Positions 7,535 through 64,000 of a stretch of DNA of 64,000 bases are shown here, piece by piece (position 1 is the stretch's first letter; every line of letters begins with the position of its first letter). The notes under the pieces are model-generated. The model had not been told where the DNA came from and searched no databases. It saw nothing but the letters and a program-made list of their open reading frames with translations. The position numbers and the translations under genes were made by a program. The stretch is from the NCBI GenBank assembly GCA_039621445.1, contig CP154954.1:30198395-30262394 (forward strand), written 5' to 3'. The stretch is from Euglena gracilis. Taxonomy: Eukaryota.

Positions 7535-7980
7535 CAGGCTTTTGCTTAAGGACCCCAGGGAGGGGGGGGGTACTGGCTAGCCATCGGCTAGACACTGGAA
7601 AAAATGGACCAGCTAGGACCCCCCCCCCCCGGGGGGGGGGGGGGGGGCGTCCGGGGGTCCCCCCCACTGGAAAAAAAATTTTTCCTCCGGCGCTGCGCGC
7701 CGAGGTGGAAATGGGGGTTTTAAGAGGTTTTTGGCTGATTTTGTTCCAAAAATTCCCAAAAATGGCCAAAAAACGGACAATTTTGGCCATTTTTGGGGGG
7801 TCCCCAAAAAAATTTCCGGCGCTTTGCGGTCACTGGGAAAAAAAATTCCACCAGCTAGCCCTGCTAGCAGACCCCCCCCCTGGGGGGGTCTGCTAGAAAT
7901 CCCACTAGCCAAATTTGGACTAGCTGCAGTCCAGCCCCCCCCCCCCCCCGAGGTACTGCAATCCCTTAAGCAAAAGCCTG
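7535..7980. mobile_element. hAT-like MITE, family A (young copy)
   Basis: Perfect 17-bp TIR CAGGCTTTTGCTTAAGG / CCTTAAGCAAAAGCCTG; TSD actggggc/actgaggc. Related to 42491-42890 and 43505-43866. Confidence 0.9.
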
Positions 7981-8005: not shown

Positions 8006-9430
8006 TCACACCGGGATGCTGGGCTTGGCGGCGGGGCCAGGGGGGCCACCCACCAACCCAAAGCCGAATCGGAGTGGCACCGGCCCTGTGATGCACTTAA
8101 TGCCATCGCTTTGAGAAAGGCCATACAAAAATACACCCGTCTTTAACTTCCTGTCAGGCTGTTCTTTACCGGGTCCGGAGTGCCCTTGGGTGCCTGCCCA
8201 GGCAGGCACTGCCCCGCCCCCCCCCCCCCCGGCGGTCGGATGTCGGCCTGTGCCCAGGAACTTTCCTCAGAAAATAGGCCATTTTCCCTTGAAAATAGGC
8301 CTTTTTTGCGCCTTCCGGCGCCGAAGGCGCAGGAGTGCCTGCTAGGCACTTTTGGCCGAGTGCCCGAGGGTCTGATTTTTGTGTCTTGGAGTGCCTGCCC
8401 AGGCAGGCACCCCGTAGTTAGCACCCCGGGGGGTGGGGTCAGCACTCGACTGAAATACAGCCTGCTTCCTGTCTCCAAAAAGAATAAGGACATGAAGCGT
8501 AAAGCACAGTAGAAATGAAGGCTTTTGAGACTGAGTGTGCTCTGTCCATCGGGGGGGGGGGGGGGATGAGTTGGACCCAGAACCACGTGCGGTCGGCCCG
8601 CCTGCGCGGGGCGGGATCCGCCTTGCATCTGCCGCCGGCACCGGCCGGACGCGGTGCGCGTCAGCACGAACACCTTCTCGGCGTCCACCACCATCCACGG
8701 CGCGCCGACCACCGCCGGCCGCCGCTCCGAGATCCGGGCGGACGGCGGTGGGCAGACGCCGGCGGTGGCGGCCGGAGGCCCACCCCCGGCACCTCCTGCC
8801 TGGGGGTGTCCGCTTGACCGGAGCTGTGACCCCACTGGGCGGGGGGGGGGGGTCCAGAAGGTGGGGCCGGCGGGCGATTTGGGGAGACGGGGGTGAACGA
8901 GGCCAACAGCAGGAGGAAGTGCAGGAAAACATGGGGGACGCAATCAGGCGGCGGCACCGTTCCCATCCCACCGGAACACTGGGACCAAACCTGACCAGGC
9001 AGTTGCAGGCACACTGAACATACTTACAGGAATGACAGTTTCTCGGGGGGGGGGGGGTCCCCTGCCCACCATGGCACTGGGCAAAGTAACATTTGACCCA
9101 AAAAATCGCCCCAGAAATTTGGAAAGGGGGGGTCCAGTCCGCCCCCACGCACCCGGGGCAGCTTTGGGGGGGGGGTCAACCACAGCAGCGCCGGGCCACA
9201 GGGCCATCACCGGGCGGGGGGCAGCATGTCGGTGGACGGCATCCGCACCCCCAGGTCGCAGCTCCGGCGCAGCCGCCGGCGCATGAGCGGCGCGGGGCCG
9301 GCCAGGGCCGGCAGGCCGCCGTCGCCCGCCTCCGCCGCGGAGGCCGCGGTCAGCCGCCGCGGCCTGGCGGGCGGGCCCGGGGCGGCGTCGCGCGGCGTGT
9401 CCCGGGCGCTGCGGCGCGGGGCACACCCGG
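8006..9430 (-). CDS. Exon cluster of a hypothetical protein (possibly the 3' end of the preceding gene)
   Basis: GC-rich islands at ~9207-9430 and ~8578-8795 (WMVVDAEKVFVLTRTASGRCRRQM), and a probable last exon ~8006-8085 (CACAG acceptor, GPVPLRFGFGLVGG...PV*). Confidence 0.4.
8155..8464. mobile_element. hAT-like MITE (gtgcctgccc-motif family)
   Basis: CAGGCTGT...ACAGCCTG ends; perfect TSD cttcctgt. Internal gtgcctgccc/gcaggcac motifs shared with 63286-63599. Confidence 0.9.
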
Positions 9431-10131: not shown

Positions 10132-10582
10132 CAGGGTTCGATATAAGGACAGGTGGGGGGGGGGTGGTCCGGACCCCCCCTGCGGGCCAGGGGGGGGGGG
10201 GGGTGGGGGGGGGGGGGGGGGGGGGGGGGGGGACACCCCCCCCACCTAAACAGGTGCGCGGTCTGGGTTACCGAATTTCGGCCCGGCGCGAAGCGCCAGG
10301 CCGAAAATTTTTGACCCCCAAAACGACCAAAAGTGCCATTTTGGGCACTTTTTGGGCAAAAATGTGCCAAAAATGCAAAAAAATTTCGGCGCAAAGCGCC
10401 GGAGGAAAAAATTGACCCTTTTGGGGGGGGTCCCGGGAACCCCCCCGAGGGTCGGTCCGGACCCCCCTGGCAGGTGGGGGGGGGGGTGGTCCGGACCCCC
10501 CCTGCGGGCCAGGAGGGGGGGGGGGGGGGGGGGGGGCACCTCCCCACCTAAACCATGTACGCCCTCTTTATATCAAACCCTG
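10132..10582. mobile_element. hAT-like MITE
   Basis: TIR CAGGGTTCGATATAA / TTATATCAAACCCTG; perfect TSD gccaacgg; internal ~100-bp direct repeat. Confidence 0.9.
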
Positions 10583-13900: not shown

Positions 13901-14684
13901 CAAAAAGGTGTCCTCTGACCGGGGGGGTGGTCGTTGGACAAGGGGTCAAAAAAAATGTTGGCGGGTAATCGGGACCCCACCCCCCAAAAAAGGTCAAATT
14001 TTCCCTTCCAGCGCTTTGCGCCGAAAATTTTGGGCAATTTTGACAAATTTTTGTCCAAAAAGTGCCAAAAATGGCATTTGGGCCAATTTTTGACCAATTT
14101 GGGGCACAAAAATTTTCGGCCCGGCGCTTTGCGCCGGGACCAAAATTTTCGCCAAACCTCCAAAAAGGTGTCCTCTGACCGGGGGGGGTGGTCATTGGAC
14201 ATAGGGGGGTCGTTGGACATAGGGGGGGGGGGGGTACAACAGTGCCCCCTTGCCACAACCACCCCTGAGAGCCACAATAAATGTCCAAAACTTCAGGAAA
14301 AGGCCGGGATGGAGAGGGGGGTGAATGCGCACCTGCGCATTCACTGGGCACCACAAAACAGGGGGACAGCGACAGGTACAACGCCTTCACTGGACGAGGG
14401 TGCCGCCCCGAAAAACAGCGTTTCGTGTCGCATCGGCTCCGCTTGACGAGGTGTTTCCCCCTGCCGGTGGATGTCAAAGCAGGTCTCCCAAAAGTGAAAA
14501 AAGTCGGATTCCTCAAAGAAATCCTCACGACGCCGGAAGTCGTGGTACACATTTCCACTTGATCACCTCGACTTGACGGGTGCGCCGCCCCGTCAAGTGA
14601 TGGCAATGCACTTGGTCACAAAAGAATGCGCAGGTGCGCAAAAAAAACCACCCAAAATGAAAAGTGCATTCCCGGCCGTCTAAG
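10933..14684. mobile_element. 3.75-kb non-autonomous TIR element with CTTAG...CTAAG ends
   Basis: CTTAGACGGCCGGGAGTGCACTTTTC vs GAAAAGTGCATTCCCGGCCGTCTAAG; dispersed aatgcgcacctgcgcatt-type motifs inside; no intact transposase ORF recognised. Confidence 0.75.
13816..14242. mobile_element. MITE nested in the 10933-14684 element
   Basis: Inverted ends TACCCCCCCCCTATGTCCAACGACC / GGTCGTTGGACATAGGGGGGG...GGGTA; repeated tctgaccggggggggtggtcgttggaca motif, also seen at ~9880-9930. Confidence 0.7.
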
Positions 14685-15709
14685 TGCAAAGCGTCTGGCA
14701 TTCATTGGGGGTTCAGGATCTCCGTGGGCATCATCGTAGCGGTGGGGTGCATGCATCGAATTGAAGCCAGCAAAGTGGGTTGGTGGCACAAGTGTGGCCC
14801 ACGGCATCCCTTGGGGAGGTGTTCCGGGAGCCATTGGGCCCAGGCTGTGCTTCTAGCCAACTGCAGCTGGGGGCTCTGTTTCTCTGTTAAGGTGGCTGCC
14901 TTTCGTCCAAAATGGGCAAAAATGAGACTTTCCCAGGCTGCCGACCACCACCCGCCCAGGGGACGTTTAAACCCCTTTAAAAAATCACTCTCATAATCAC
15001 TCTCGCAAAAAAAATATATAGCATTGCTGGAAATTTCTGGCATTGCTGCAACATTTTCTATCCACCCAAACTCGAAATAATAATAATGATAATAATGATA
15101 ATAACGATGATAATGATAATGATAATGATAATGATAATGGGTTTCTTGGCGTTTTATTTTGGACCTCATTTGATGCGCTTGACCACCCTTGGAAAACAGA
15201 ACCCTAAAATCTTAAATAGCCTCAAAAAATCGAGAACCATAAAAAAATTTCCTTTAAACCCTTGAAAACCTTTCAAACCTTGAGAATTTTTCACCGTAAA
15301 AATAATACCTGGGGGTGTTGGGGACAGTGGCTAACCCCCCCACAATATAACGCCCCCGGTTTTATATTTGGACGGGATTTCAAGACCCTAAGGAAGGCTT
15401 TATATTGGGGGGGGGGTATTTTGGGGGGATCAAACTTTTTTGGGTGGCCCCTATGACCTTCGGCAGCCTTCAAATTGTGGCCAAATCCCAATTGTATGCC
15501 AAATTTTTGTTGTGTACCTCCCATTTTCCGTAAAAATGTGCAATTCTTATCTAAATGAAGCATCTCTGGTGAAAAAAATGTTGTCCCCACCCAAAAATGA
15601 CACCAGTGTCTGGCTCCACATCAAGGGGGGGGGCTTTATATTTGGGGGGGGGTTACTGGACAGGAGGCGGCCTTGCCCCCTTTTTGTGAAAGAATCCAGC
15701 CTGGTCGGG

Positions 15710-34435
<18,726 letters not shown>

Positions 34436-36820: not shown

Positions 36821-46961
<10,141 letters not shown>

Positions 46962-48072: not shown

Positions 48073-51002
48073 TCATCGACCGCGCCCGCCCTGGTTGGCC
48101 CGGAAGAGGGCCAGCCCCTCCGCCAGCGACCGGCGTGTCAGCCCGTCGTGCCCCAGCAGGACGAAGGTCACCCCCGGGGGCAGGGGGGCCGGTGGGGGCG
48201 GCTTTGGGGGGCCAAGGTGTGGATGGGGAGGTGGACTTCGGGTTTCGGTCAGAAACGTGACAAATGTGACTTTCAGCCCGGGGAATGGAGTTTCCGTTTT
48301 ACGCTTCATATCGTGGTTGCTGAGATTGGGAGATCTGGTCGCTGGGTCGCATTTGCCGAATGCAGTTTGCAGGACGGAAGTATGACCTTTCACCGGTTCC
48401 AATGTCTAATACTACACACTTGAAATGAGCAAAGAATCATCTTCAACGTGAAGGGAATACTTTGAATTAAATCTGATCCATTTTTAATAGAAAATAATAA
48501 ATTACCTTCTTCAATATATACGTGCGCCCTGCGACATTTTACTTCATTTATCTCCCTCGCTTTTTCTATTGTGGAAACATTTGAGAGGGGAAAATAGCGG
48601 CACTCTTTGGGACAGGGACCCCCTGCACAACTGGGCCACCTCTCTGTTGCATCCAGGACACTGCTTGTCCTCAGGCAAGAAGGGGGGGGGGGGGGGCTAC
48701 ACATTTTCCAAGGAAAGCAGAAACTCGATGCTGATAGAAGCCATGCCTAGAATGCTCATTATGCTTGTTTGAGTAAAGACCTGGTTTTGGCTCTCGTCGT
48801 CGAAGAACAGCATTTCACTGTACAGGGCCAAGGCGATGCGGCGCCCCCGAGAACCAGTGGGGCTGGGCCACCTTGAGCACGCATCACCGCGGGAGGTTTG
48901 CCCTCCATCCGCCGCAGAGTTTGTGCCATGTGCCAGCGTTTATCAGACGTGCGTGGTGATGTTTTGAACTGTCAGTACTCATACTCCCGAGCCTTTGGTC
49001 CCCATCTTCATGGTTGCCAGCCAGTCCTTGGCCCCGTTACCTCCGACAGTGGGCTTGTCAGGACCGCTCCGCCTTGCACCCCCCAGCCTGCTGTCCCCCA
49101 GCCCGCCTCATTTCGGGCCAAGCCCCGTGGCCCATACCGTGGTCCCTCCCCTCCCTCCCCACCCCAACCCCCCCAAACCCCAGCCACTTCCGTTCGGCCG
49201 TCCTCCTTGCGCGGGATGCCGGTGCGTTGGTGCAGCCGCCGGAAGTGGGTCAGCTTGGAGCCGGGGTAGACCTCCCGGTGGTCCGCCACGGACCACATCG
49301 TGTGCTGGGGGCTGGCGGCTCGGCGGCTCGGCGGCAACGAACAGCGGGCGCAAATCCCCGGTGGGACGAGCCCCCCTCCCACCCCCCTCCATCAGAGAGA
49401 ATTTCCAAGCTGGGTTCGCTTCCTGTTGTCACACGCTGGGAAATGAAGTCGGTTTCAGAAAAAAAAATTGCCGGATGTGGAAAATGGTGACAGGGGCGTG
49501 GGCCAGGTCGGGAGTCCGCCAGTCGGACCAGTCCGCGGCAGGGCGCCATGCCACCCGTGGGACCACTGGGCGGGTTGGCGTTGGGGAGCCCCCAGCCAGC
49601 AGGGCCCCCTGGCCGGGCGGCCTCCTCCGCCCACGCGGGCTCCTCGGTGCGGCTGACGTACGCCAGCTGCACCTCCGGGTTGGCGTGCAGCTCCAGCAGG
49701 ATGCTGGGCACGTCGGCGCCGCGGCCCCCTTTAGGCAAGGGGGGGGGGACTCCTCCAAGTGCCATATATTGCCTCCGTATCACCGCGCCATGAGGTAAAT
49801 GTCGAAAATAATAACATGAATGATGGATGGAATAAGGTGATAAAAATAATAATAAAAACACACAAAATAAATGTAACAACGATAACATACCAAAAAAAAA
49901 AACGGTCCCACTTTTAAAACGACCCAGGGTCTTTGGTTGGTCAGGTTAAACCTCAAGGCCCAGACTGTGTTTTTGTCTGGGACGACGGAGGTGCAGCCTT
50001 GAACTTCACTCCTGCAGAGCCCACTGAGCGAATGCTCTGGTTGACGATAACGACAGGGTTTAACACGCCCAGCTCAAACCCAGAATTCTGAGGTAAATGC
50101 ACAGTCTATGCATCCAGCATAAACTATGAATCCAGTTTGTAGATCTGGATCTGTAAACTGGATCCAAAGCTATCCACGTGGATAGATAAACCCGCCCCCC
50201 CCCAAATAGAAGCACGGGGTTGCTACAAGCGCAGGGTCCAAATAAAAGCGCACCCCCCCCCCGTCGTCGAAGGCGGCAGTCCGCTCCAAGCGCACCCCCC
50301 ATTTTGCTGGGGCTTCTAACTGTCTAAAGGAATTCAACAAAAATCGGGCAGGAAGGGTCCAAATAGAAGCGCACCCCCCCCCCCGCCGCCAGAGGCGGCA
50401 GTCCACTATATTTTCACCCACGCTTTTATTAGGGGGGGGGGTTATGGATCTATCCATATGGATAATGGATAGATAGGGCGACTTTGGGCCCTATCTATTT
50501 AGGCCTTTATTAGCCCTGACTTTCGGTTGAATTTAGGGCCGAATTAGCATTTCATGCAAAGCCTAACCCCCACTCAAATGCCAACCCAACACCCAATCTA
50601 GAGGCAAAAAAAAGTGAAACAATCTATGTGTGAATTAAGTCCACACTTTGTCAATTTAGGCCAAAAAATAGTTTTGTCAAAATTTGGTCCTCCATTAGGC
50701 TAATATTGTAACCCTACTCCAAAAAAACCCCCTGCCATAATACATAATTAATGAATAAATTGACAGGATGAAACTTGTGACCCCCAAAGGGTCTCAAGGC
50801 TTGTTTGAAGGAGTAGAGCTAGGATTTTTGGTCCAAAAACTAGGTCTATGAATGCTAATCCTTCAATAAATCTGAGACCTCTTTTGGGGGAGACAAATTT
50901 CACCTTGCTTAATATTAATACATAATGTAAATAATACTGAATACGTAAAAATAATAAAAATGAATATTGAACATATACATGTGTTATTATAATATTATGA
51001 AC

Positions 51003-51041
<39 letters not shown>

Positions 51042-51358
51042 ATAATATATATATATATATGTATTATTTAATAAAAATAAATTGGTTAAAAAAAATGGAA
51101 ATGTAAGCATATGCACATATCATGCTCAGGTTTCTTCATGATTTGAGGGGTGCCTCCCTCCACCACCACGCCCGAAATCGCCCGAATGGAAGGGCAGCCG
51201 TGGCCAGGGAACAGCTCCACCGCCTCGCCGCTGCCGTCCACCACGCCCCGGGCTGTCTGCCGGAATGGCGGATGGCGGTGCGTGTCGACCCAGAACGGCC
51301 ACAGCGTGTAGTCGATGTCGAGGGCCACCAGCCGGGGCATCCGGTCGCCACCCGCCAT
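48073..51358 (-). CDS. MDP1: Magnesium-dependent phosphatase 1 (HAD-superfamily, MDP-1)
   Basis: Exons (minus): 51206-51358, 49615-49714, ~49510-49533, 49213-~49305, 48787-48823, 48629-48648, 48073-48175. Translation shows PRLVALDIDYTLWPFWVDTH (DxDxT motif I), VSRT (motif II), EVYPGSKLTHF, MLFFDDESQNREVAQLGVTF (motif IV) and GLTRRSLAEGL, typical of MDP-1. One junction (~49305-49510) is unresolved. Confidence 0.92.
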
Positions 51359-51395: not shown

Positions 51396-53043
51396 GGGCC
51401 CCCGGTGACGGTTCTTCGGTGGCCTAACTCACACTTAGCTTTGAAAGCGACTGAAAAAATTGCGCCAACGTGGAATCTTGCAAAGAATTCTGTTCCCGAC
51501 TGAGAACCCTGATGTAGAATGGAAATTTCAGAGTTGTGTTGCGCCTTGTTTACGAGGCGCAGGTATATAGCACAACCCTAACGCTAAACCCAAATCATTG
51601 TATTATAAGCACAAAGCTCTGGATATATGCATGAATGTAAACACATGCACGCATATAGAAATCATTTTCATGGGGGTTTTGCCGGATTGATAAAAAAAAA
51701 ATGGTGGGCATTTTTTTTTCACAAGGATTTGGCTCCGAGGCTGCTGTTCAGGGAACTGTCAATCAGCTCCTTTTCGTGTTTCTTTTCACACGTTTATCGT
51801 GATACTCAAGTTTCAAAACATCGTCTCTGTCGATCGCCAAAAAAAAAAACTGGGAAACTGGGAAAGGAGCTTTGGGACATCTCCCTATCTATGTGCTATC
51901 AATGGATGAACACATGGGGGAAAAATGAACTAAATAACCTGATTCAGTGGCTTTGCTTCAATTGCAAAAGAAACTCTGCCAATCAAAAATCAAGAGAAAA
52001 TCTCACACTTATCCGGAAGAACTTCATAGGCTAAAGAAACCAAAAAAAAAACTGAATCCAAACTGAAGATGCGTGGGAAAAGTGGGGTACATAGTGTGTG
52101 AACAGAGTAGAATGCAATGGAGTTTGGGCGGGTAAAGTTGGGCAGCAGTCGCTGAGCCTGTGGACCCCTGTGGCGTGCCTCCTTGTACTTTGTTGTGTAG
52201 GGCACGGCCAAAGTAAAAAAAAAAGGGACAAAACAAGAAGGGCCTCTCAGTTACCTTGATTCCTTCTAAACTTGCAAATCAGAATTTGCTTTGAGTGCAG
52301 ATGGGAACTAAAAAAAATGGCTTGTTGAAAATCGAGCATCCTTTGTCTTCGGGAAGTTCTGAAGCACGAGTGGCACCTCTCGTTGAAATTAAGAGAAAAG
52401 CTGAAAATAATGTCATTATTCCTTCTCAAAACAACCAACGAATGACCAAAAATCATCACTTTTTCCCAATCCCTAACTCAAAGGTGGAGCAAAAAGAGGT
52501 GCACGTGGTGATTTGAATTTTGACGGCATTTTGTGGTGTGCGACATAAAACTGCAGGAAGATGCTGCTTCAGAGTCAAAGCCGTTTTGCAACCTGACAAA
52601 CCGCTGCCCGGGATTGCAGGGAAGATTGGGAAAGGGCAGGTCAGCGATGCCAAACGACGGTGGAGAAGAGAACTAGAGTACAAGGAAAGGAGGTGGGGAG
52701 GGCTTTGCTTCCCACCTGGGGGTTGGCCAGCTACGCAGCCCGCAGGTTGGGGGTCAGGCAACACCCCAACGATCAGTACTCGGCAGAAGTCTGGGTCCGA
52801 CACCTTGCCAGTGGGACAGCGCGCAGAAGAGCGGTGTTGAGCAGCCCATGCTGTTTTGTGTGACCTGACACGAACGACCACGCCATGTAGTGACAGTGTG
52901 TTGTGTGGCAATGATTGGTTGATTGTGTGGGAATGCTGTGTGGTCGACCAACAGGAGGTGGGGGGGGTCGGCGAAGCCCCGTGGGTAGACCTGATCCGTG
53001 GGTAGACTCCCCCACCCACCCATAGGATTTCCAGGATTCCCAT

Positions 53044-56000
53044 TCAGCTCTGACGTGGCAGCCGGGGCGGGATGAGCTCGCCCTTCAGCTTCTTGACGAG
53101 GTCGTCCGGCACGTCGGAAAGGGTGTGCATGATGGCCCCGTCCACACCATTGCTTTCTGACTCCTGGGGGGGGGGGGCTTTCCACTTTCAATCACTTTTC
53201 AACTAGTCGATCACTTTTCAAAAACAAAACCCGGGGGGGGGGGGGGCAGTCACATTGGCCACTTGGCCAAAATGCCCAAAGTCAAAAGGATTTCTGCCAA
53301 AATCAAAAAAAATGGTGCTTTCGGCGCTATGGGGCCACTTTCGGCCATTGCCAGCCAACGTCACCCCCCCGGGGGGTCTGGAGCCAAAAACCAGTCAGCC
53401 ACTCCGACAAAACCAAAAAAAAATCAGCCAAATCTCCCCCGGGGATACACCTAAGCAACGGAATGGCTCCGACCCCGGTCCGGAACCGCGCCATGCCCGT
53501 CCCCACCGGCCGCCGGTCCGACCGGGCCCCAGCCCGCCGCTGGTGCTCGGGTCGGTGCAGCTCCATTAGCCCCACCGTTCCACATGCCACCAGCCAGTGC
53601 AGCCGACGGGAGGGGTTCAGGAGAGTTGGGCATTCCAGACTCTGTCAATTTGGGGGGCATGTTTGCATGCATGTGCATGTTTTTGCAGATGTGTGAATAC
53701 ATGGTGTGTGTGCGCGCGTGTCTGTTGTGCACGTATGTGTACTTGTGTGCGGGTGTGTCTGTCCATCTGTCTGTGTGTTGTGTGCGTGCGTGTCTCCACA
53801 CACGTGCATGGATGATAGGTGCATGGGTCAATGGGAGGGCCTTTGGCGGCCCAGTCTAATGCCCCGCAACCATGAAATTTACTAACCCCCCCCCAAATAA
53901 CCTGGCGGGGGCCGTGCTCCTGGCAGTGGCCGAATAACTCGGCAGGGGGGCGGGGCAAAAAAGATGGTTCCACCCCCCCCTTTAAGGCAATATCCCTTTA
54001 CGACGCTGAAAAAAAGGGCCCAAATACCCTGGCAGGGGGGCAGGGCCAAAAGGTGGTTCCAATAACCTGGCACCGCCAGGCTATTTGGGAGGGGGTTTAG
54101 GTCGAGGTGGCCAAGGAAGCCCAGGAGGAACGATGCTCAGGAAGCGCAGCTTAGAGAGGAGCTCCTGGGCGTCCCGCTTCGTCAGGCACTCAATGCGGTC
54201 GGTGGGGGTCTGCTTGTTCTTGTAGTCCACCTCCAGGTACAGGGGCCGTGTCGGGTCGGTGGCATCCCAGTCCAGCCGGGATCAAAAATAATGGTGGTCC
54301 AATACAAAAAAAATTAAATGACCACACAAAAACCATTCGACATTTTCGCCAAATATTCAACAAATGGTCGAAAACCTAGCTCAAAGTCGTTGGAAAACTA
54401 AACGACCGAAGGAGGGGTTGAGTGAGGCAAAAAACTCACCTCACCCCGTATGGTCAAGTTTGGCAAAGTAATTGCATGTTTTTTAGAATTCAAGCCGCAC
54501 CCAGAATTTTTCAAGAACTCAAGGTAGGGGTGATTTCCAAACAAAGGAGAATTCAAAGGTTGGTTGCAAATTTGTTGGAGCTGAAAAACAGCCAAACGAC
54601 ATATTTTGTGGGAGCACTTTTCGATGATGACGGCGTTGGTGCATCAACAATCCCTGATCATCCATTTTTGTTGGAGGAACTTTCAAAGTGGTCAAAAAGC
54701 ACTAGCACAACGTCAATTTGACAAAGTGCGACTTTTTTGGGAGAAAGCCTTGAGAACCTTGGCTTTTTAGTGCAATGGAGATCATGGAGGTCAAGTGAGA
54801 AAGATCAAAAAATGGAATATGCCATAATGTCCAAACATATGATATCTGTGAGGTGTATAATGCCCAAACTCCACCATCCATTCCTGCAAGTCATTGATAC
54901 ACTGCCCAGCCTCACTGCCTCAGGGACAACAGAATGGTCAGGCTGCCGGATGGCCTCGATGTCCTCGATGCCGCGATCAAAGACAACCATTAGCCCCCAC
55001 TGCTTGCAGCAGGAGGGGGGCAGCCGGCAAAGAGGCACATTGGCGCAGGGGTTTTCTTAATGACCGGGGGGGGGTCCTGCGGGCTGGCTGGACCCCCCCC
55101 AGCAGCCAGCCAGCCAGCTGGCAGCTGGACCCGGCGGGTACCCCAAAAACAGGCAAAAAGGTCTAAAATTAACGTTGGCATTTTTCAGCCAAAATTTTGT
55201 GGTAAAGACCCAAAACCGACCCAAAAATGCCATTTTTAGGCCATTTTTGACCCTTTTTTCCCCAAAAGTTTCCTGGGCGTTTGCGCTTTTCGGTCCAGCC
55301 CAGCTTTGCCGGGCTGGATCCAACATTAGGTCAGCAGACCACCAGGAGAAGGGGCCCGCAGCCCGACTGGGAGGGAAAGAAGCGCTGGCTGGCTGGGCCC
55401 ACCTTCTGGGGTCCCCTCCAGCTGGAGAAAACCCCTGACCAGGCGGCGTGGGGCTCACAAATCAGACCGCTTGAGGGGTTCCCCGGGTCCCTCAAGGGGA
55501 CTCGTGCTCTGCTGACAGAAGTCGGGGGGGGCACTCTCACCGTCCTTAGTGAGCCACTGCGCGATTTGAGCAGCGAAAGCCTGAAACCAGCCAAACCAGT
55601 CCTGAGGCTTGGGCGGGGGCAGGGGCGGGGGGTTGGGCGGGATGCTGGGTGCGGCGGACGCTGCCGACCAGCGTCTTCTCCCGCTTGGGCATCATGTTGT
55701 AGATGGTGCTGCGGTCCATGCCCAGGATGCGGTGCTGGCGCACCCCCCACTTGTTGATCTTGATGACGTGGAACTCCTGGCGGCGGGCGGGGGGAGCAAT
55801 GTTGACGATAATGTATTTGAGGGGGTTCAGAGATTTTTGGTAGATTACCGGACCCAGCCATGTTTGGATGGGATGACCCCCCCCAATAAAGCCCCCCCCC
55901 CCCAATAATCCCCAGGGTTTTTACAGAAAAATAAAACCAGAATTATGCCACCCCGGGTGACCTGAGCTCGAACGTCGTGACTAATTTGCTACCCATCAGG

Positions 56001-59000
56001 ACTCAAAAAACTGCCAATTTCTCTGAAACAATTCTTTTTGCAAAAAAAAGACTACTCATCTTCACAGGAGGGTCCTAAAAAAAGTTATTTTGGGGTGAAA
56101 CGGGCATTTTGAGGACATTTCTGCAGGGGCCCGCTTTCCGAAGCAAAAATTCAAAAATAGCCCACCCCCGAAATAATGGTCCCCCCTGAGATCTCAGCTG
56201 AGTGTCCGAACAATAGCCCTATGGGGCTATTGTTTGGGGGGGGGGATTGGTGGATAATATTCTGTATTGATTTTGGCAAGCTGTGTTCGGTCTACTTCGC
56301 AGGGTGGCGAGACGCAACGAAGAATTGAAACACCAGATGAAACTTGCTGGCCCACAGCCACAGAGTCTGCTCAGATCATCGCTGCCTGTAGAAAAACACT
56401 CTGGGCCCTCAAAGGGAAGAGCAAGCATCATGGGAAGGTGTAATATTGGTCTGTACCAGCTTACATTCTTGTGCATGTGTACATACACATCTTGTAGGTG
56501 CGTAGGTGCGTGGGTGCGCCCAAATGTGTGGGTGGGTAGGTGGGTGGTTATGTGCGTGGGTGTGTTAGTGTGTGTGTGTGTGTGTGTGCATGTGCCAGTG
56601 TGGTGTGGATGATAAATTGTGTTCTTTTGCGCATTTGCATGCATGTCTGTGTGTGTTTGTGTGTGTGCATGTGTGTCTCGAGTTGTGTGTTTTGCTGCGT
56701 GTGCGGCTGCATACACAGCTGCTGCCTTGTACAAGTATCCTGCTTCCACCTTCAGTAAGTTGCTCCTTGTGCTATTTTCATTCTTTTTTGCAACGTTCTT
56801 CTTCATCCTCTGGCACCATTTTCACACCTGGCGGGGAGTTGTTCCGGTGCCAACAGATCCAAGCCAGGGAATGCTTGAAACTTGACTGAGCCCGGAAACT
56901 TGACTAAGTGGGGGGGGGGGCTGCTTCCCAATTCTGTTCGCCAACAGCATCAAGGGATGGTTCTACCAGCCTGCCAGGTCCCCTCCGGCTAAAGAAAGAC
57001 ACCGACAGGCACACATGGACGCTATATATGTGCATCTGAATCCACACACGCGCGCGCATGCACACACCACGCACGCACGCACGCACGCACATGCAGGCAG
57101 GCACATATGCGCAGATGCAAACGCACACGTGTGCACACACACGCACACACACACACACACACACACAACACCTGGTACTTCGAGGCATCGTACTCCGTGT
57201 ACAGTACGCCTCGGCCGTCGTCCTCCTCCGGGGCAGCGTCCACCTCGTCGTCCTCCTCCTCCTCCGCTTCTGGCCCCAGCGGCTCCAGCGCGAACTCGTG
57301 AACCGCAAATGTGCCCACAGGCCGCCGCCTCCATAAACGCCAAAGACGGGGGGGGGGGGGCAACGCTGCGCGGCACCCGACACGGCGACCCACTGTTCCG
57401 GGCGGAATCGAATGCCGACCCAGCGGGGGCCCGGCCATGGTACAGGGTGGTGAGGGTCTTCTCCGTGGGCAGGCTGCCGTCTGAGAGGCTGGTGCGGTAC
57501 ACCCCGCCGAGGACCTGCAGAGGCAAGGGCGTTTCCCCAAGAGCAACGGCGACAGCAACAAAAAAACGACAAGGACAACAACGACAAGGAAAATGGAAAC
57601 CACGCTGGTGCGGTTACGGCGGGGGGGGGGGGAGGGGGCTGGACAGACGGACTTGACTTGTGAGTTGAAAAAAAAAGTCAAGCACCAAAAAAATATGAAG
57701 GTGGGCAGGCGCTTATCAAAAATTCCAGCACATTCAAATACAGATCCACAAGAAAATGGGTGAAGGTTTGGCATTTCTCAGTTACAAGTGGGACTTGCCC
57801 CCCGATTCCAACTGAACCATGTTAGATGTGAGGAATAAGGTCAGGGTTGGGGTTTGGAATGGGGGTTAGGGTTATGGATAAATAATAAATAATAACGAAT
57901 GGATGGGGTTACTTAGGCGGCGCATCTCGAAACTTAAGGGTTTTTTCTTTGTCAATGTGCGCAATTGCGCAAATCGACATATTTTGTGAAATTCTTGGAG
58001 CGCCGACTGTGCCTGGTGAAACAGCAATATATGACGTTCACACCTCACAATACAGGTTAGGAAACACAAAGGTTTCAAGCCATCATCCTAACGAACGTTT
58101 CTGATGCGTCGGGAGCGACAGATTGGTGTTGCCGTGTGCGAAACAGGTGGGTTGTACACCCTGGCTGTTGTGTCGATGGGTACTGGTGTGTCCGCGCTGC
58201 CTGAATTGACTGGGTGTTGCAAACCTGTTTGAAGGGGGCCGATTATCCACCATTTGGACAACGTGATGTCATGGTAAATTAGGCGACGATTGTGGCATAA
58301 AAAACTTCAGAACTCTGCTGCTATCAGACGGATTGAAACGTGTGTCAAGCGATGGAACACTCACATGAAACATATTTATGAAGTGAGGGTCGATGTGCGC
58401 AAATGCACACACCGACCACGTGCGTATTTTGTGTTGGTGGTTGGTGTGCGCATTTGCGCACATCGACCCTCTGTGCCATTTGTTGATGGTCGATGTGCGC
58501 AAATGCGTACACCAACCATCAACAAATAGATAAGTGGTCGATGTGCGCAAATGCGCACATCTACCACTTACACAAAATACACATGTGATTGGTGTGCGAA
58601 AATATGTGAATGGTTGATGTGCGCATTTGCGCAAACCGACCACGTGACACTTGGGAAATATACTCCACATAATACCACATGAAACACAAGTCCTGCCTTT
58701 TCTTGGTTCAGAAGTAAAGTTTGCCCAAGGATTTTGAATGGGTACCGTTGCAATGTGTACCAAAGATCGGTGGCTTGGAAATGTACCTTTGTTTGACCTC
58801 CGTATCATGGAGTGCTCTTCATCCTTAACCGTTGATGTGCGCACTTGCGCACACCGACCATCAGGGACGCAAAACTTTTGAAGCCATTGTGTGGAGACGA
58901 AATTTTGGTTTTTATATTATGCGAAACACGCAGTAGAACACACTATATGACAGGAGAAAATTTGTTCTTTCCAAGCACAAGTTTTGCACGTCTTATCTCT

Positions 59001-62000
59001 AACCTGTAAAACCGATCGTTTTCGCGTCATCAGTTTGGGAGTTGCACAGGAGGAATTGATGACACGTAAACCCCGGTGATTGTTGGACACATTTCTTAAA
59101 CAAGGACTTCCAGAGATTCAAAATTACATGTGTGTAATCCTCCTGTTTCCCCAACCCGGAATCATTATTCTGTTTTTACCACAATGATGCCTCGTTTTTT
59201 CTCAAAAAAACATGCAACGCACCAGTTTTTGTGCACAATATCAGGGTGCTGAGTCGCAGTACTTTCACGCAACCCAACCAGGTGTAAACATCAAATATTC
59301 TCTCCCTCCAAAACAACACAGCCAAACATAAAAACACACACACCCACCCCACAAACAAAAACCCCCCCCCCCACCGCCACACCCACTCCCTCCAAAACAG
59401 TAAGGTTTGTGGCCACGTTTAAGACGCTCCGATTTTCCATTGTTTCCATGAACCAGCAGCATGCCCGCCTCCCCAGTCTGCCATCCCAGTTGTGGGGGAC
59501 AACAATGCCACCTCGGTGGCTGCTGCTGAACCGGGGGGTTAATGACGGCCTTGTGAAAGCTTAAGTGCAACCCCTATCATCACCGTTGCAGCAAAACACA
59601 AACCAGGGGGCAAGTGGTGGGATTTTTCGAAAGCCACCCCATGCCCAAGGGCGCGGCTTCACGTGTGCCGGTGACGTGCCAGCGGCGGGCCAACTATTAG
59701 AGGTCTACGGTCTCCACATGGACCTGGGCCTGTCACTTAGTCACTTTTTTCCCTAAAAAAAGCCCCATGGTTGAGGAGAGTGTTTGGCAGCTGAGTAAAT
59801 TGCACACCGAAGGAGCCATTGCAGGTGGTGTTTGGGGTCGTGTTTGAATTGCGCTATATAAAATCAATATTGTGGTCGGTGTGCGCAAACGCGCACATCG
59901 TCATGGTGTGCCCATTTTTGCACTCTGGCGACGTCCATCTTTATGCACGTGGTCGGTGTTTGAAAGTGTGTAAACGCCGACCATGTGCGCATTTGCGCAA
60001 ACCGACCACTTTTTTCATTCCGACCTGGAGCTTGGTGCATGTGCTTTTCAATGCATTTCTGTCTGTTTTCGGAGCAAAGCTGCGTTGTAAGCTTTCTTCC
60101 AATTATTGTTGTGTCAAAATGCTCAAGGCAGTGAGGTCCGTTTACGTTCCATGATATTTGATCGCGTCCCTTTTCACAAATGAACATGAGGTCGGTTTGC
60201 GCAAATAAATGCACACACGTGGTCGATGTGCGCATTTGCGCAAACCGACCTCATTTTCTCTCCCAAACTCATGGTATTTGTCTCATCAATTTCAGAAGTG
60301 TGAATTCTGGGGTATTTATGGCCGTTCTTCGGGGGAACTGCACAATGGTCGATGTGCGAAATTGCGCACATCGACACTCTTTATTTGTTCAAAACATGGC
60401 TGCAATACGTCAATACAGTGCCATTTGTGTGATCCCCTCTCCCGTTTCAGCGCTACACAATTTAGCCGGACGAATCCCCACTGCAAGTTCGGTGGGGACT
60501 CACGACGCTTCCCTCCCCTTCAAACCACTTTCCCTTCACCCTGCACGGGCCTTCACAAAATCCCCAGGCACGCCTTCGTTTCTGCGCTCTTGGCCGGCGG
60601 CGTGATTGGACCCACCCTAACCCCCCCCCATGCTTCTTCCCTGCGCTCTGGCAAACGCACAAGAACACAACTCCAAGGCCAGCAAAAACAAAAAAAAAGT
60701 GCGCCAAAACCCCCGGAGGGAGCCAGCCAGGGTCGCCAACAACCGGCGAGGAGAGCTGCATCGCACAAAAAGGGGGGAGGCGGTACCGGGGTTTTGGTGT
60801 TTTGGTCGCTGTTTTTTCAATTGTGGGGGGGGTAGGTCCGGGGGTTTTCGTGGCATGCCGACCACAAAAAAACTGTCAAAAACACGTAATTCGTGGGAGC
60901 GCCGGGGCCAAAAATGAAAATTTTGTCGGATTCGTCGTCCACCTGTCGCCTCGCGCTCTTCCCCCTTGCAACGCCGACGCCAAATTGAAAAAAAAATGGT
61001 CGGTTTGCGCAAATGCGCAAATCGACCAAAAAACCCTTAAGTGCGAGATGCACCGCCTAAGGGTTAGGGTTAGGGGTTATAAGCCTAAAAATAAGCCTCA
61101 ACTTTGGAGGAAAAAAAGGTTGAAAACGCTGAGATTTGGTCTAAAAGTCCTTAAAACAGAACTCCTTGCCCTGATCAGAGTGTGGCTTAATAACCACATG
61201 GAAAAGGCTGCCGGTTCTTAAGGAATGGGGTTTTTTTTATTAACAAAAGGACCGCTCCTTAAGGGCTGCCCAGAAAGAGGGCTGGCCAACGGCCGGCCTG
61301 AGACTCGAGCCGACCGGGTTGAAAACCTAGATGGCAGCAGAAAGCTCTGCCCCCCCCCCCCCCCCGGGGAGGGGTTCCAGTGGTATGGCCCAGGGAGGGG
61401 GTCCACTTGTGTGGGGCGATTGGGCGGGTATCGGATGTGTTCTTACCACCATTTTGGTTGAGATCACGGTTAATTAAAAGATTAACCCCGCCCCTTGGGG
61501 TTCATCCAACCAGCAGCCTTTTTCCGGCCAGTAGCCCTTTTCCATCCCTGGACCCCCCTCCCCCCATCCACGAGTTTGGATTATTTTGCAGCCGCCTGAA
61601 GGGTCGGCTGGACGGGCAACAATTTTTTTTTGCGTCTGAACTGGGCTGGCCAGGGCAAATTTTGGGTCAAATGCCAACTTGTATCACGATTGGCGGATTT
61701 TTTAGACAAGTTTGCGGTGTTGATTTTTTGGGGTGCCCGGTTCAGCCCCAGTTTGGGCCTATTTCCAGCCCTGAGACCCCCAGGGGGGGGTCAGCCATCA
61801 GTGTCCGGCCAGACGCTTGGGTGCAGTAAAAAAAAAAGGAAGGGCTATATCAAGGACACGTCATTTTCTCCCTCGAGACAGTGGCAATATGATCATATTC
61901 AACTCAAAAAAAAGACAGAAACAATGGCATTCTCCCAGTGAATGCAAGCAAGAAATGCGACATTGGGACTTCAAAAATAATAAAAATGGTGTTGGGTTTT

Positions 62001-63922
62001 CCAGACCCTGCGCAGCAGATAGACCAGTTTGATTTGGTGCTTCTTCGGGTCACGGTTCAGCTTCTCACAGACCAACGCCAACAAGTCCCGGTACAGGACG
62101 TCAGGGGGTAGGGAGAGGCGGCGGCGCGTCGTGCGGCTCTGCCGCACATAGTTGACGAAGAAGGTGAGGTCCTCCAGCGTCTTGCGGGCCGGCTGGATGG
62201 GGTCCCGGCTGGACCTGGAGGACCGAGGGAAATGAAGCGTTGCGGGATTTGAAAATGGTCGACCGGTTCTCTGGTTTCTGGTTTGAGGCAGCAAACGTTT
62301 TCGAAAAGGAAACCACTGGACAAGTGCAGAGCCACTGGTCAAGGAAGGTGCCGGAGAAAAGTGCTTGGATATTCAGCTCCAGAATAATGGAAAGAGTTTG
62401 CATAACTGCAGGATGGAGCAAAGCTGCAGAAAATAAAGAACCAGTATGAAAGGTTTCAGGTTCCCTCGCCGAAAGCCATGGGAATTCTCAGCCAATTGTT
62501 TGAGGTGAAAATCCCCCCCAAAAAACCCTGGTCGATGAAAAAGTTGCAAGCCCAGGGCATGGCCGTGGCTGTGACACAGAACGGCAATCCTGGCAAATCC
62601 TGCACAAGGCTTTTTTGACTGTGTTCCACCTTGGACAGATTGTCCCAAAATTTCCTGTCTGGTTTTGAGGAGGGAACAGGGGTTTGTTTAAGACTGGGGG
62701 GGAGGGGGGTTCCCCACCCACCCATCCCCTGGGGGCCGGCCCCCGGGGGGGGGGGGGTGTCCCGGGGGACCTACTCTCGTTTTCCCGAAAATGGCAAAAA
62801 ATCGCGAAAATGCTAAAAATAGCGGCGCCTTCGGCGCCAAAAGGTATATCCCCGGGGGTCCCCCAGGGGGGGGGGGGGCTCGGCTAGACCCACCCACCCT
62901 AACCTTACCCCCCCAGGGTCCAAGACGAAAAAAAAATCCCCTGGATCTGAAGTCCAAATGAGAGCCGGTTGCCCCAGACCTGGGGGGGGGGGCTGCCGGC
63001 CTGCGCGGCTACGGGTCCCTCCTGGGGGGGGAGGGGTGCTCATGGCCATTCTCGACCCTTTTTCCTCAAAACTATCAGTCGGGCCTGGGCTGGCCCCAAC
63101 TTTATTTCAGCAGAGGGCAGAGGGGCGTCACACATTGGCTGGGCTGGACCCAGAGGAAGAGTTCCTCAGGCTAAAAAAAAAATGGCCCTGCTTCCGACTC
63201 CCCCCCCCCTAGGGGGATCACTTCCACTCTTCCACTCAATCACTTTTTTTCAGAAAGCCAGTCAGTCATTTTGGCTCCCTGGGATCATGCTTGTGCTTAC
63301 CGACCGGGGGGGGGGGTGCCTGCCCCTGGCAGGCACACCCGGGGGGGGGGGACCCAGAAAATTTTCATTGAAAATGGCCTTTTCCGGGCCCCTGGCGCCT
63401 TCGGCCGGGGTTTTGGGGGGGGGGGGTGCCTGCCTGCCCCTGCCCGTCCCTGGCGCCGAAGGCGCCAGGGACGGGCAGGGGCAGGCAGGCACCCCCCCAA
63501 AAACCTACCCCCCCCCGGGGGTCGGATTGGGTGCTATGTGGTGCCTGCCCCTAGCACCCCCCGCCCCGTGGGGTGGGCACCCGACTAAGCACAGGCCTGC
63601 CTGGGATCCAGTAAAAAAAATTCGACTACAAATGTGAGAAATATATATAAATAAACAAATAAATAATACGGTGCCTTCGGCGGCGAGTCACTTCGGTGGT
63701 TTATCGCCGACCACCCCCCTCTTGGGGGAGGGGGTTTGGATCAAAACCAGTCAGGCACCCCTCCCCTGGGGCAGGGGGTCGACCAGAGACTACTACAAGG
63801 TCCGGGGGCGGACACCCGCTCTCGCTGCCGTCGCTGCAGCACATGACCAGCGTGTCCAGGCGGTTGACCTTGGAGTTCCAGTCCAGCGCCGGGACGTCCT
63901 CCTCGATGGTCCCGGTGTCATC
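53044..63922 (-). CDS. SIN1: SIN1/Avo1/MAPKAP1-like TORC2 subunit, 3' part (end of CRIM, RBD-like and PH domains); 5' end lies beyond the window
   Basis: Manual exon model (minus): 63816-63922, 62007-62214, 57399-57514, 57172-57310, 55639-55776, 54940-54978, 54139-54257, 53469-53567, 53044-53137; all phases join in frame to TGA. DDTGTIEEDVPALDWNSKV resembles the SIN1 CRIM motif (EDDGEVDxDFPxLD). LSLPPDVLYRDLLALVCEKLNRDP is RBD/ubiquitin-like. YQEFHVIKINKWGVRQHRILGMDRSTIYN...TQHPDRGIEDI...ELLSKLRFL resembles the SIN1 PH domain. Three GT-AG and five nonconventional introns; the 57311-57398 junction is the least certain. Family call is from motif recall, not a search. Confidence 0.8.
53143..53465. 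mobile_element. hAT-like MITE (CATAC/aaaccagtcag family) forming the last intron of the SIN1-like gene
   Basis: Ends CACACCATTGCTT / AAGCAACGGAATG; flanks gccccgtc (53135-53142) / gctccgac (53466-53473), 6/8 identical. Internal aaaccagtcag motif shared with 17734-18091 and 32948-33303. Confidence 0.8.
55046..55437. mobile_element. hAT-like MITE inside a nonconventional intron
   Basis: TIR CAGGGGTTTTCT / AGAAAACCCCTG (same ends as 32605-33459); TSD degenerate (4/8). Confidence 0.7.
57912..61061. mobile_element. 3.15-kb TIR element with CTTAG...CTAAG ends, within a GT-AG intron of the SIN1-like gene
   Basis: CTTAGGCGGCGCATCTCG..CTTAAGGGTTTTTT vs AAAAAACCCTTAAGTGCGAGATGCACCGCCTAAG; many gtcgatgtgcgcatttgcgca motifs inside. 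Confidence 0.8.
63286..63599. mobile_element. hAT-like MITE nested in a CATAC-family remnant (~63210-63790)
   Basis: CATGCTTGTGCTTA / TAAGCACAGGCCTG ends; perfect TSD cctgggat. Confidence 0.85.
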
Positions 63923-64000
63923 CTGCAGCAAGGCGGGCACCGGCGCAGGTTGGAATACCGCCATGGCAAGACGTGGTGGAACGGCGCGCGCCAGCGAAAC

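Follow-up and report, generated by a model that had tools for sequence, protein, structure and literature searches.

A miniature inverted-repeat transposable element that is very probably spliced from a SIN1-like transcript of Euglena gracilis as a nonconventional intron, together with one copy of its 8-bp duplication

The nonconventional introns of euglenids have been linked to transposable elements since 2014, when the insertion of elements resembling MITEs (miniature inverted-repeat transposable elements) was proposed as their source at a time when euglenid transposable elements were unknown (PMC3935182; this and the other papers given by PMC number are cited for the accessible portions of their text). 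A newly gained intron in one strain of Euglena agilis was found to be accompanied by eight-nucleotide direct repeats, which were credited to double-strand-break repair (PMC4770533, 2016), and a 2024 review labels the CAG/CTG motifs as inverted ends and treats the junction repeats as duplication-like (PMC11282704). A 2025 study defined by genetic means the CDG/CH'G motif of these introns and their spacers of 3 nt and 5(-6) nt; it reports the CDG/CH'G signature in 61.2% of the nonconventional introns of E. agilis, finds 69.1% of such introns to be slidable and calls their origin unclear, maybe MITE-like (PMC12501133). MITE-like transposons have also been suggested as a source of the noncanonical introns of diplonemids (PMC12621601, 2025). 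The present analysis concerns a window of 64 kb of GC-rich nuclear euglenid DNA (54% G+C) from Euglena gracilis contig CP154954.1, in which a 323-bp MITE lies within a coding exon of a SIN1-like gene and very probably is spliced out of the transcript as a nonconventional intron, together with one copy of its 8-bp duplication. All positions are those of the window, and copy counts refer to the window rather than to the genome.

The element is read on the plus strand, antisense to its host gene, and its parts are the following:

53143..53465, plus strand: MITE copy of 323 bp, antisense to the host gene and homologous to the copies at 17734-18091, 32948-33303 and ~45380-45617
53143..53155, plus strand: terminal inverted repeat on the left, CACACCATTGCTT, which makes up the 3' arm of the stem in the RNA
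53450..53465, minus strand: right terminal inverted repeat CATTCCGTTGCTTAGG (minus-strand reading), the 5' arm of the RNA stem, beginning at intron position +4
53135..53142, plus strand: left copy of the 8-bp duplication, GCCCCGTC, of which 53135-53137 are exonic and 53138-53142 intronic
53466..53473, plus strand: right copy of the 8-bp duplication, GCTCCGAC, of which 53466-53468 are intronic and 53469-53473 exonic
53389..53398, plus strand: subterminal family motif AACCAGTCAG, with a single occurrence in this element

The inverted ends are identical at 10 of their first 13 bases, the right end departs from the terminal 16-mer of its repeat family by two mismatches, and the flanking 8-mers match at 6/8 positions. 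An earlier description made from the letters of the window alone (the sequence-only reading) had placed the element and the intron here, and the sequence bears out its details in full: the coordinates, a duplication matching at 6/8, the motif AACCAGTCAG (at 53389), a 3' end that lacks AG, and codons reading GTC GG/G GCC ATC.

Splicing of the gene was followed in RNA data consisting of the contig sets X15, X16 and X17 and the raw RNA-seq reads of X21, mapped on 52300-64000; the run search gave 24 runs, 23 of them under one organism label, and four were used. The features that bear on the end of the gene are:

53469..53567, minus strand: upstream coding exon ending in RFRTGV, defined by RNA joints and the spliced frame
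53138..53468, minus strand: nonconventional intron of 331 nt, on the gene strand AGC + element + GACGG, with a 3-nt slide (shared CGG)
53068..53137, minus strand: downstream coding exon of 70 nt, GAIMHTLSDVPDDLVKKLKGELIP, followed by another nonconventional intron
52791..53067, minus strand: next nonconventional intron, 277 nt, with the joint 52790 to 53068 in 3 contigs and 35 reads; it fits the +4/-6 register with a 1-nt slide and scores 5/8 in the duplication register

The junction 53469/53137 had been predicted from the sequence and is found in all three contig sets as well as in the raw reads. The joint from 53137 to 53469, which skips 331 nt and has the plus-strand ends CC..CT, is carried by one contig per set (X15, X16, X17) and, in X21, by 26 raw reads (13+13) with 22 start points. 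Read support at the seven other listed junctions of the gene ranges from 17 to 62, so that the focal junction is of ordinary strength. Template switching by reverse transcriptase was considered as the origin of the junction and rejected on account of the ordinary read count, the near-zero depth within the intron and the colinearity of transcript-derived proteins, including a relative with 71% identity.

On the gene strand the sites read GGG GTC GG / AGC-CATTCC...GGTGTG-GACGG / G GCC ATC, with slashes at the cuts. None of the four registers allowed by the slide has canonical GT-AG, GC-AG or AT-AC ends, the ends being AG-GG, GA-CG, GG-AC and CG-GA. The downstream exon begins with a purine (G at 53137, minus strand). 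Pairing of the intron termini runs inward from +4/-6 and takes in 12 of the first 13 positions, with two G.U pairs among them, in the order of three pairs, one mismatch, nine pairs and a further mismatch, and both the minimum free energy fold and the centroid fold close the termini of the intron.

The 331 nt removed correspond to the element plus one duplication length of 8 nt, split 3 + 5. Both mismatches between the two copies of the duplication fall in the intronic halves, which is expected if the exonic parts were kept under coding constraint, and the exonic halves joined give the 8-mer of the spliced RNA. The proposal that removal takes the element and one duplication copy (3+5), uses no GT-AG sites and restores the frame is therefore borne out by the RNA. 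The most likely course of events is that a non-autonomous DNA transposon of ~320-360 bp with ends like CATACCATTGCTTAGG inserted into a SIN1-like coding exon that was presumably once uninterrupted, at a target that would have read GTCGGGGC on the gene strand, and that 8 bp were duplicated. In the pre-mRNA the inverted ends would pair and draw the exon ends together, and the machinery of nonconventional introns would measure from the stem, which is probably the feature recognised here, and make one cut 3 nt upstream of it (5' side) and another 5 nt downstream of it (3' side). As the spacers of 3 and 5 nt add up to the length of the 8-bp duplication, the transcript would shed the element with one copy and regain the frame that existed before insertion.

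The host gene was described as SIN1-like by the sequence-only reading, and the label is right. The spliced frame is open across all 10 exon pieces in the window. Exon 55779-55639 alone scores E=0.0037 and 18 bits against SIN1_PH, below the cut-off of 27, and a database search with this PH exon yields three longer relatives, the closest proteins being transcript-derived EukProt entries. For two of the relatives, P0001 (476 aa) and P0003 (521 aa), the precomputed domains include PF16979 and PF16978 (SIN1_PH and CRIM); the CRIM part of the host gene lies past the end of the window. The spliced product is identical to P0001 at 321/333 positions, with 98% over the PH exon, and to P0003 at 252/355. 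Both relatives are colinear across the junction (RFRTGM-GAIMH in P0001, RFMTNM-GAIMH in P0003), which places the insertion site within conserved coding sequence. After removal of the 277-nt intron the protein ends in GELIP/TSAEY (the slash marks the joint) with the stop at 52775-52773; the naive frame ending in PPRLPRQS was rejected, as the 277-nt intron 53067..52791 is removed in RNA. A further protein, P0002 (an ENA gene model from another assembly, on a 222-kb contig that may hold the orthologous locus), has 94% identity over the PH-domain exon and leaves the SIN1 frame just after KLRFLMELHR, probably as a result of a prediction that ignores nonconventional introns. A PDB sequence search with two exons returned nothing relevant.

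The focal element belongs to a family with at least four copies in the window, of which the full-length ones measure 323-358 bp and have ends of ~13-16 bp like CATACCATTGCTTAGG. The other copies are:

17734..18091, plus strand: family copy of 358 bp with ends CATACCATTGCTTAGG / CATACTATTGCTAAAC and duplication TCCCGGAC/TCCTGGAC, 7/8
32948..33303, plus strand: family copy of 356 bp with duplication GCCCGGCC/GCCCGGCT, 7/8
45380..45617, plus strand: family copy with the right end intact (CATACCGTTGCCTAAG, minus strand) and the left end lost or diverged, its start being approximate

A blastn comparison of the focal interval with the window recovers only an internal piece of ~45 bp, at 33194-33236 (88.6%), 45523-45568 (84.8%) and 17969-18028 (75%), and direct reading around these three matches leads to whole elements of like build. 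The four copies align over 456 columns with a mean column identity of 63% and have in common subterminal AACCAGTCAG repeats, C-run/G-run palindromes and a GGYGCCTTCGRCGCC hairpin. The motif AACCAGTCAG is present 1-4 times per copy; its 10 occurrences in the window are spread over five loci and all lie on the plus strand, with 0 on the minus strand, and the family copies in the window thus share one orientation, which leaves the focal copy antisense to its gene. The terminal 16-mer (up to 4 mismatches) has 12 matches in the window, 7 of them within the four family loci, against a mean of 3.9 and a maximum of 11 in 50 shuffles. The family is present beyond chance.

The ends of the elements were set by alignment between copies, and the flanks were read directly outside those ends. 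In the three full copies the flanking 8-mers match as direct repeats at 6/8, 7/8 and 7/8 positions and as inverted repeats at 3/8, 3/8 and 5/8; the idea that they merely extend the inverted ends was rejected on these figures, and their direct rather than inverted match identifies them as target-site duplications. The elements are thus short non-coding sequences present in several copies, bounded by terminal inverted repeats and a duplication that is constant at 8 bp, the fourth copy having no recognisable left end. The copies at 17734, 32948 and ~45380 thereby confirm what the sequence-only reading had described, a multi-copy MITE whose ends are inverted and whose duplications measure 8 bp. 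No family member was found outside the window among 23 loci from a metagenome scan that carry the subterminal motif, and blastn of the four copies there matched 17-32 nt at the seed, as expected by chance.

Several points weigh against the reading of this intron as a spliced MITE. The folding energy of the whole intron is no better than that of shuffled sequences (z = -0.31, with 37/100 shuffles folding equally); since runs of G and C fold whatever their order, only the terminal stem is informative. The intron motif is CAU...GUG, with U.G at +6/-8, and falls outside the published signature N3CDG/CH'GN5-6 before R, which puts the intron among the 38.8% left unexplained in the accessible text of the 2025 study (PMC12501133). 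The duplications are imperfect and mutually alike across copies (roughly nCCCSGnC), which would need a target preference. Between the junction contigs and the window, 4-5 of ~180 positions of the 3' untranslated region (3' UTR) are unlike, with further differences at 53513, 55648-55738 and 62067, and the junction reads are unphased to the window haplotype. The estimate of intron depth given below is a rough one from 391-nt bins, and the joined form is documented from RNA runs.

The differences between contigs and window, in a joined form documented from RNA, are what would be found if the RNA junction came from a near-identical allele or paralogue without the element, that is an empty site, while the window copy was an unspliced or unexpressed insertion allele; P0001 also differs from the window product (321/333). 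The sites concerned are:

52609..62212: variant sites at 52641, 52666, 52721, 52779, 53513, 53523, 55648, 55671, 55681, 55738 and 62067

At 10 listed exon and 3'-UTR sites the reads of X21 have non-window letters in 57-76% and window (reference) letters in 24-43% of cases. The dominant expressed haplotype differs from that of the window, and at least two haplotypes, ~2% divergent, are expressed; the reference letters at 24-43% imply that a window-like haplotype is among them. If window-like transcripts kept the element, the expected intron depth would be ~12 by rough arithmetic on binned depths. The 391-nt bin with the intron has a mean depth of 7.9, nearly all of which is explained by its 60 exonic bases at ~40, leaving an intron depth of ~0-2. 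Each of the 10 sites thus shows reference letters in the reads, and over the intron the depth does not exceed ~2. Low-depth contigs consisting only of neighbouring introns occur in X15 and X16, two without listed window differences and a further one with 2, which indicates that window-type sequence is present in those samples. The element is older than the ~2% divergence of the alleles, given its duplication (6/8), ends (10/13) and family identity (63%), the frame of the window allele is intact on either side of it, and the eight other introns of the gene all behave alike. An origin of the junction from an empty allele is highly unlikely on this evidence, and even then the joined sequence would represent a clean empty site in which the 8-mer stands once. 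Splicing of the MITE remains the preferred reading, and it presumably extends to the window's own haplotype. As a separate observation, the change C>G at 53523, seen in 15/42 reads, could belong either to that strain's window-like haplotype or to a third one.

A scan for other inverted-repeat elements considered ends with at least 10/12 matching positions, the first five exact, at 80-1500 bp from each other, and compared the outer 8 bp with five offset controls. Outside four tandem or palindromic clusters 1822 pairs were counted, and in 8 of them the flanks agree at 7/8 or more positions. The 46 candidates that start with CAG contribute four (control 0.0), and three are found among the 1661 pairs that do not start with CA, where the control of 2.0 puts them at chance level; the remaining one is the family copy at 17734. 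The four CAG elements, for which no strand is assigned, are:

7535..7980: MITE-like, CAGGCTTTTGCT ends matching 12/12, duplication 7/8
8155..8464: MITE-like, CAGGCTG... ends, perfect 8-bp duplication CTTCCTGT
10132..10582: MITE-like, CAGGGTT... ends, perfect 8-bp duplication GCCAACGG
31839..31924: MITE-like, 86 bp, CAGGGCTGTACG ends matching 12/12, duplication 7/8

In architecture they resemble the focal family, with C-run/G-run palindromes and CCGGCGC...GCGCC hairpins, and have no similarity to it at the level of blastn. The duplication-bearing elements of the window are those ending in CAG...CTG or CAT...ATG, and their duplication is 8 bp. An open reading frame test at the excision sites of the other MITE copies did not discriminate: the DNA is GC-rich, nearly every junction in it is crossed by an open frame longer than 100 aa, and even at the real intron the frame picked is the wrong one.

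These elements also bear on the question of whether a transposase made the junction repeats at all. An intron-type element could instead have spread by capture during double-strand-break repair or by reinsertion of excised circular intron RNA, and the eight-nucleotide junction repeats of E. agilis gapC were taken as a mark of break repair in the available text of the report (PMC4770533). Such a course would suit the absence of a transposase from the 142 frames scanned in the window and the likeness between the flanking 8-mers of different copies. It is opposed by the three copies with 8-bp direct repeats exactly outside their inverted ends and by the four CAG-ended elements, whose 8-bp repeats match at 7-8/8 and are unrelated 8-mers; constant 8-bp repeats of unrelated sequence outside inverted ends are the signature of cut-and-paste insertion. 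The other family copies also lack the AGC and GACGG of the focal intron, and so are not copies of an excised intron. Spread without a transposase is accordingly very unlikely, and insertion of a DNA transposon remains the favoured origin of the repeats.

A more general claim of the sequence-only reading was that MITEs of this kind act as intron generators and that the consensus of nonconventional introns is simply their inverted ends plus a split target-site duplication. The focal locus fits this claim, as do the CAG...CTG elements with 8-bp duplications. The remaining introns of the host gene speak less clearly. After permitted sliding, six introns of the gene are nonconventional and all fit the +4/-6 register, next to the GT-AG introns 62021..57512, 63813..62213 and 57175..55781, the last after a 5-nt slide. 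When five exonic plus three intronic nucleotides at one end are compared with five intronic plus three exonic nucleotides at the other, which is the register of the duplication, the six nonconventional introns match at 6, 5, 3, 4, 1 and 0 of 8 positions. Their sum of 19/48 is the highest, against 6-18 at 16 shifted controls, and is not clearly separate from them; it owes its height to the focal intron, with 6, and the adjacent one, with 5. A blastn search of the seven introns listed without GT-AG (including 57175..55781) against the window gives non-self matches only for the focal intron (3) and for 55637..54978 (2 weak); by this search, dispersed relatives within the window are lacking for four of the five nonconventional introns other than the focal one. 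The general claim is plausible; it holds at the focal locus, the CAG...CTG elements have the ends and duplications that it requires, and it falls short for the other five introns, with their scores of 5, 4, 3, 1 and 0 of 8 and four of them without dispersed window relatives. The older introns of the gene are neither for nor against it.

The superfamily to which the element belongs is less certain than its nature as a MITE. Elements of the hAT superfamily have the terminal motif 5'-YARNG and the target consensus nTnnnnAn. The sequence-only reading called the element hAT-like, and the 8-bp duplication, the inverted ends of ~13-16 bp and the small, non-coding, multi-copy character of the family are those of hAT MITEs; the neighbouring elements that start with CAGGG (10132 and 31839) fit YARNG, the other two CAG elements starting with CAGGC. 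The focal family itself ends in CACAC, CATTC and CATAC (CAYWC) and so departs from that motif, the target consensus of hAT elements is not seen, and no transposase domain came up when 142 of the window's 164 stop-to-stop frames of at least 130 aa were scanned with Pfam. The duplication length thus agrees with the label, the ends do not, and membership of hAT is held tentatively, somewhat on the doubtful side.

A MITE from another superfamily with 8-bp duplications, with Merlin as the leading candidate and P-like and others as further ones, is rather unlikely, though it would account for ends that do not follow YARNG. Merlin is the sole superfamily with 8-bp duplications documented for E. gracilis in the cited literature, where two such families are described and Merlin ends are said to conserve a terminal GG in the text available (PMC8101967). 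It thus resembles the focal family in its 8-bp duplications and in the organism group; by the criteria of a duplication of 8-9 bp and terminal GG the length fits, and the ends seem not to, as Merlin ends are described as keeping GG while the focal family and the CAG elements start with CA. The CAGGG elements, which fit YARNG and have the same palindrome and hairpin architecture as the focal family, also argue against a superfamily other than hAT.

The window contains other features that lie apart from this question. The repeat clusters at 20900-21400, 25100-25550, 57900-61100 and 11000-14700 are tandem or palindromic, of the CGGCCGCGG type and the TTGCGCA/GTGCGCA type, and give rise to many spurious candidates; the cluster at 57900-61100 sits inside a 4.5-kb intron of the SIN1-like gene. 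At 57618-57638 and 61347-61367 there are many read joints between opposite strands and many loose ends made up of G or C runs, and depth reaches ~313 at 57633 in comparison with 40-80 in exons. This signal looks like that of an inverted pair of G/C-run repeats in the 4.5-kb GT-AG intron, or of reads from similar repeats elsewhere. A neighbouring gene at 48076-51358 on the minus strand encodes an MDP-1-like acid phosphatase (Pfam Acid_PPase, E = 1.6e-12); its exon 1 is 100% identical to EukProt EG_transcript_24788, and it has at least four introns. By protein-guided mapping, the introns 51205..49715 (intron 1) and ~49212..48824 look nonconventional, with a +4/-6 stem and flanks matching at 3-4/8, and the placement of two further introns is too imprecise for use.

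A transposon origin of nonconventional introns had been suggested before, as the sequence-only reading supposed, and a MITE origin is in print in the accessible parts of three papers (PMC3935182, PMC11282704, PMC12501133). The MITE proposal made since 2014 rested only on inverted ends and junction repeats. The focal intron offers direct evidence, from a single locus, for this published hypothesis, the concept of which is not new. A link between the 3 + 5 spacers and an 8-bp duplication, or a dispersed family that contains an intron, was not found in the full-text literature searched, a body that excludes supplements, figures and subscription papers; in the available text of the 2024 review, a whole-word search finds neither '8 bp', '8-bp', '8 nt' nor 'hAT', the sole 'eight' referring to phylogenetic lineages (PMC11282704).

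It is conceivable, with the balance tipping slightly the other way, that the published N3-CAG...CTG-N5 code is the RNA image of transposons that duplicate 8 bp, CAG...CTG being their termini and the 3 + 5 spacers the two halves of the duplication. The CAG...CTG ends with 8-bp duplications present in the window are what such a link requires. Were it true, any such MITE would be born as a precisely removable intron in whatever transcribed exon receives it, and the excision machinery would have evolved, or been recruited, to undo exactly such insertions, which would explain why ~70% of E. agilis introns are nonconventional. The otherwise arbitrary 3/5 spacer rule would gain a reason. The idea also makes a prediction that can be counted genome-wide, namely that the inverted repeat runs from a start at +4 to an end at -6 and that the spacers sum to the duplication length of the family.

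Like the nonconventional introns described from E. gracilis and E. agilis (Milanowski et al. 2014, 2016; Nomura et al. 2025), the focal intron lacks GT-AG ends, has a stem at +4/-6 with spacers of 3 and 5 nt, can slide by means of short direct repeats, precedes an exon that begins with a purine and coexists with GT-AG introns in one gene. It differs from them in the third position of its motif, which is U.G (CAU...GUG) and not G-C, and, as far as the accessible text of the published euglenid examples goes, in being assignable to a dispersed family, other copies of which fix its ends and its 8-bp duplication independently. A second likeness is to the introners of Micromonas, Aureococcus, dinoflagellates and tunicates, in which a DNA transposon with inverted ends and a target duplication becomes an intron at insertion, the duplication is used and the exon is restored, according to the portions available of the review that describes them (PMC11282704). 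Introners are spliceosomal and have GT/GC-AG or other fixed dinucleotides that are partly supplied by the duplication (PMC11282704). In the focal case, with one intronic family copy so far, there is no dinucleotide signal, and the cuts are probably set by distance from the stem of the inverted repeats.

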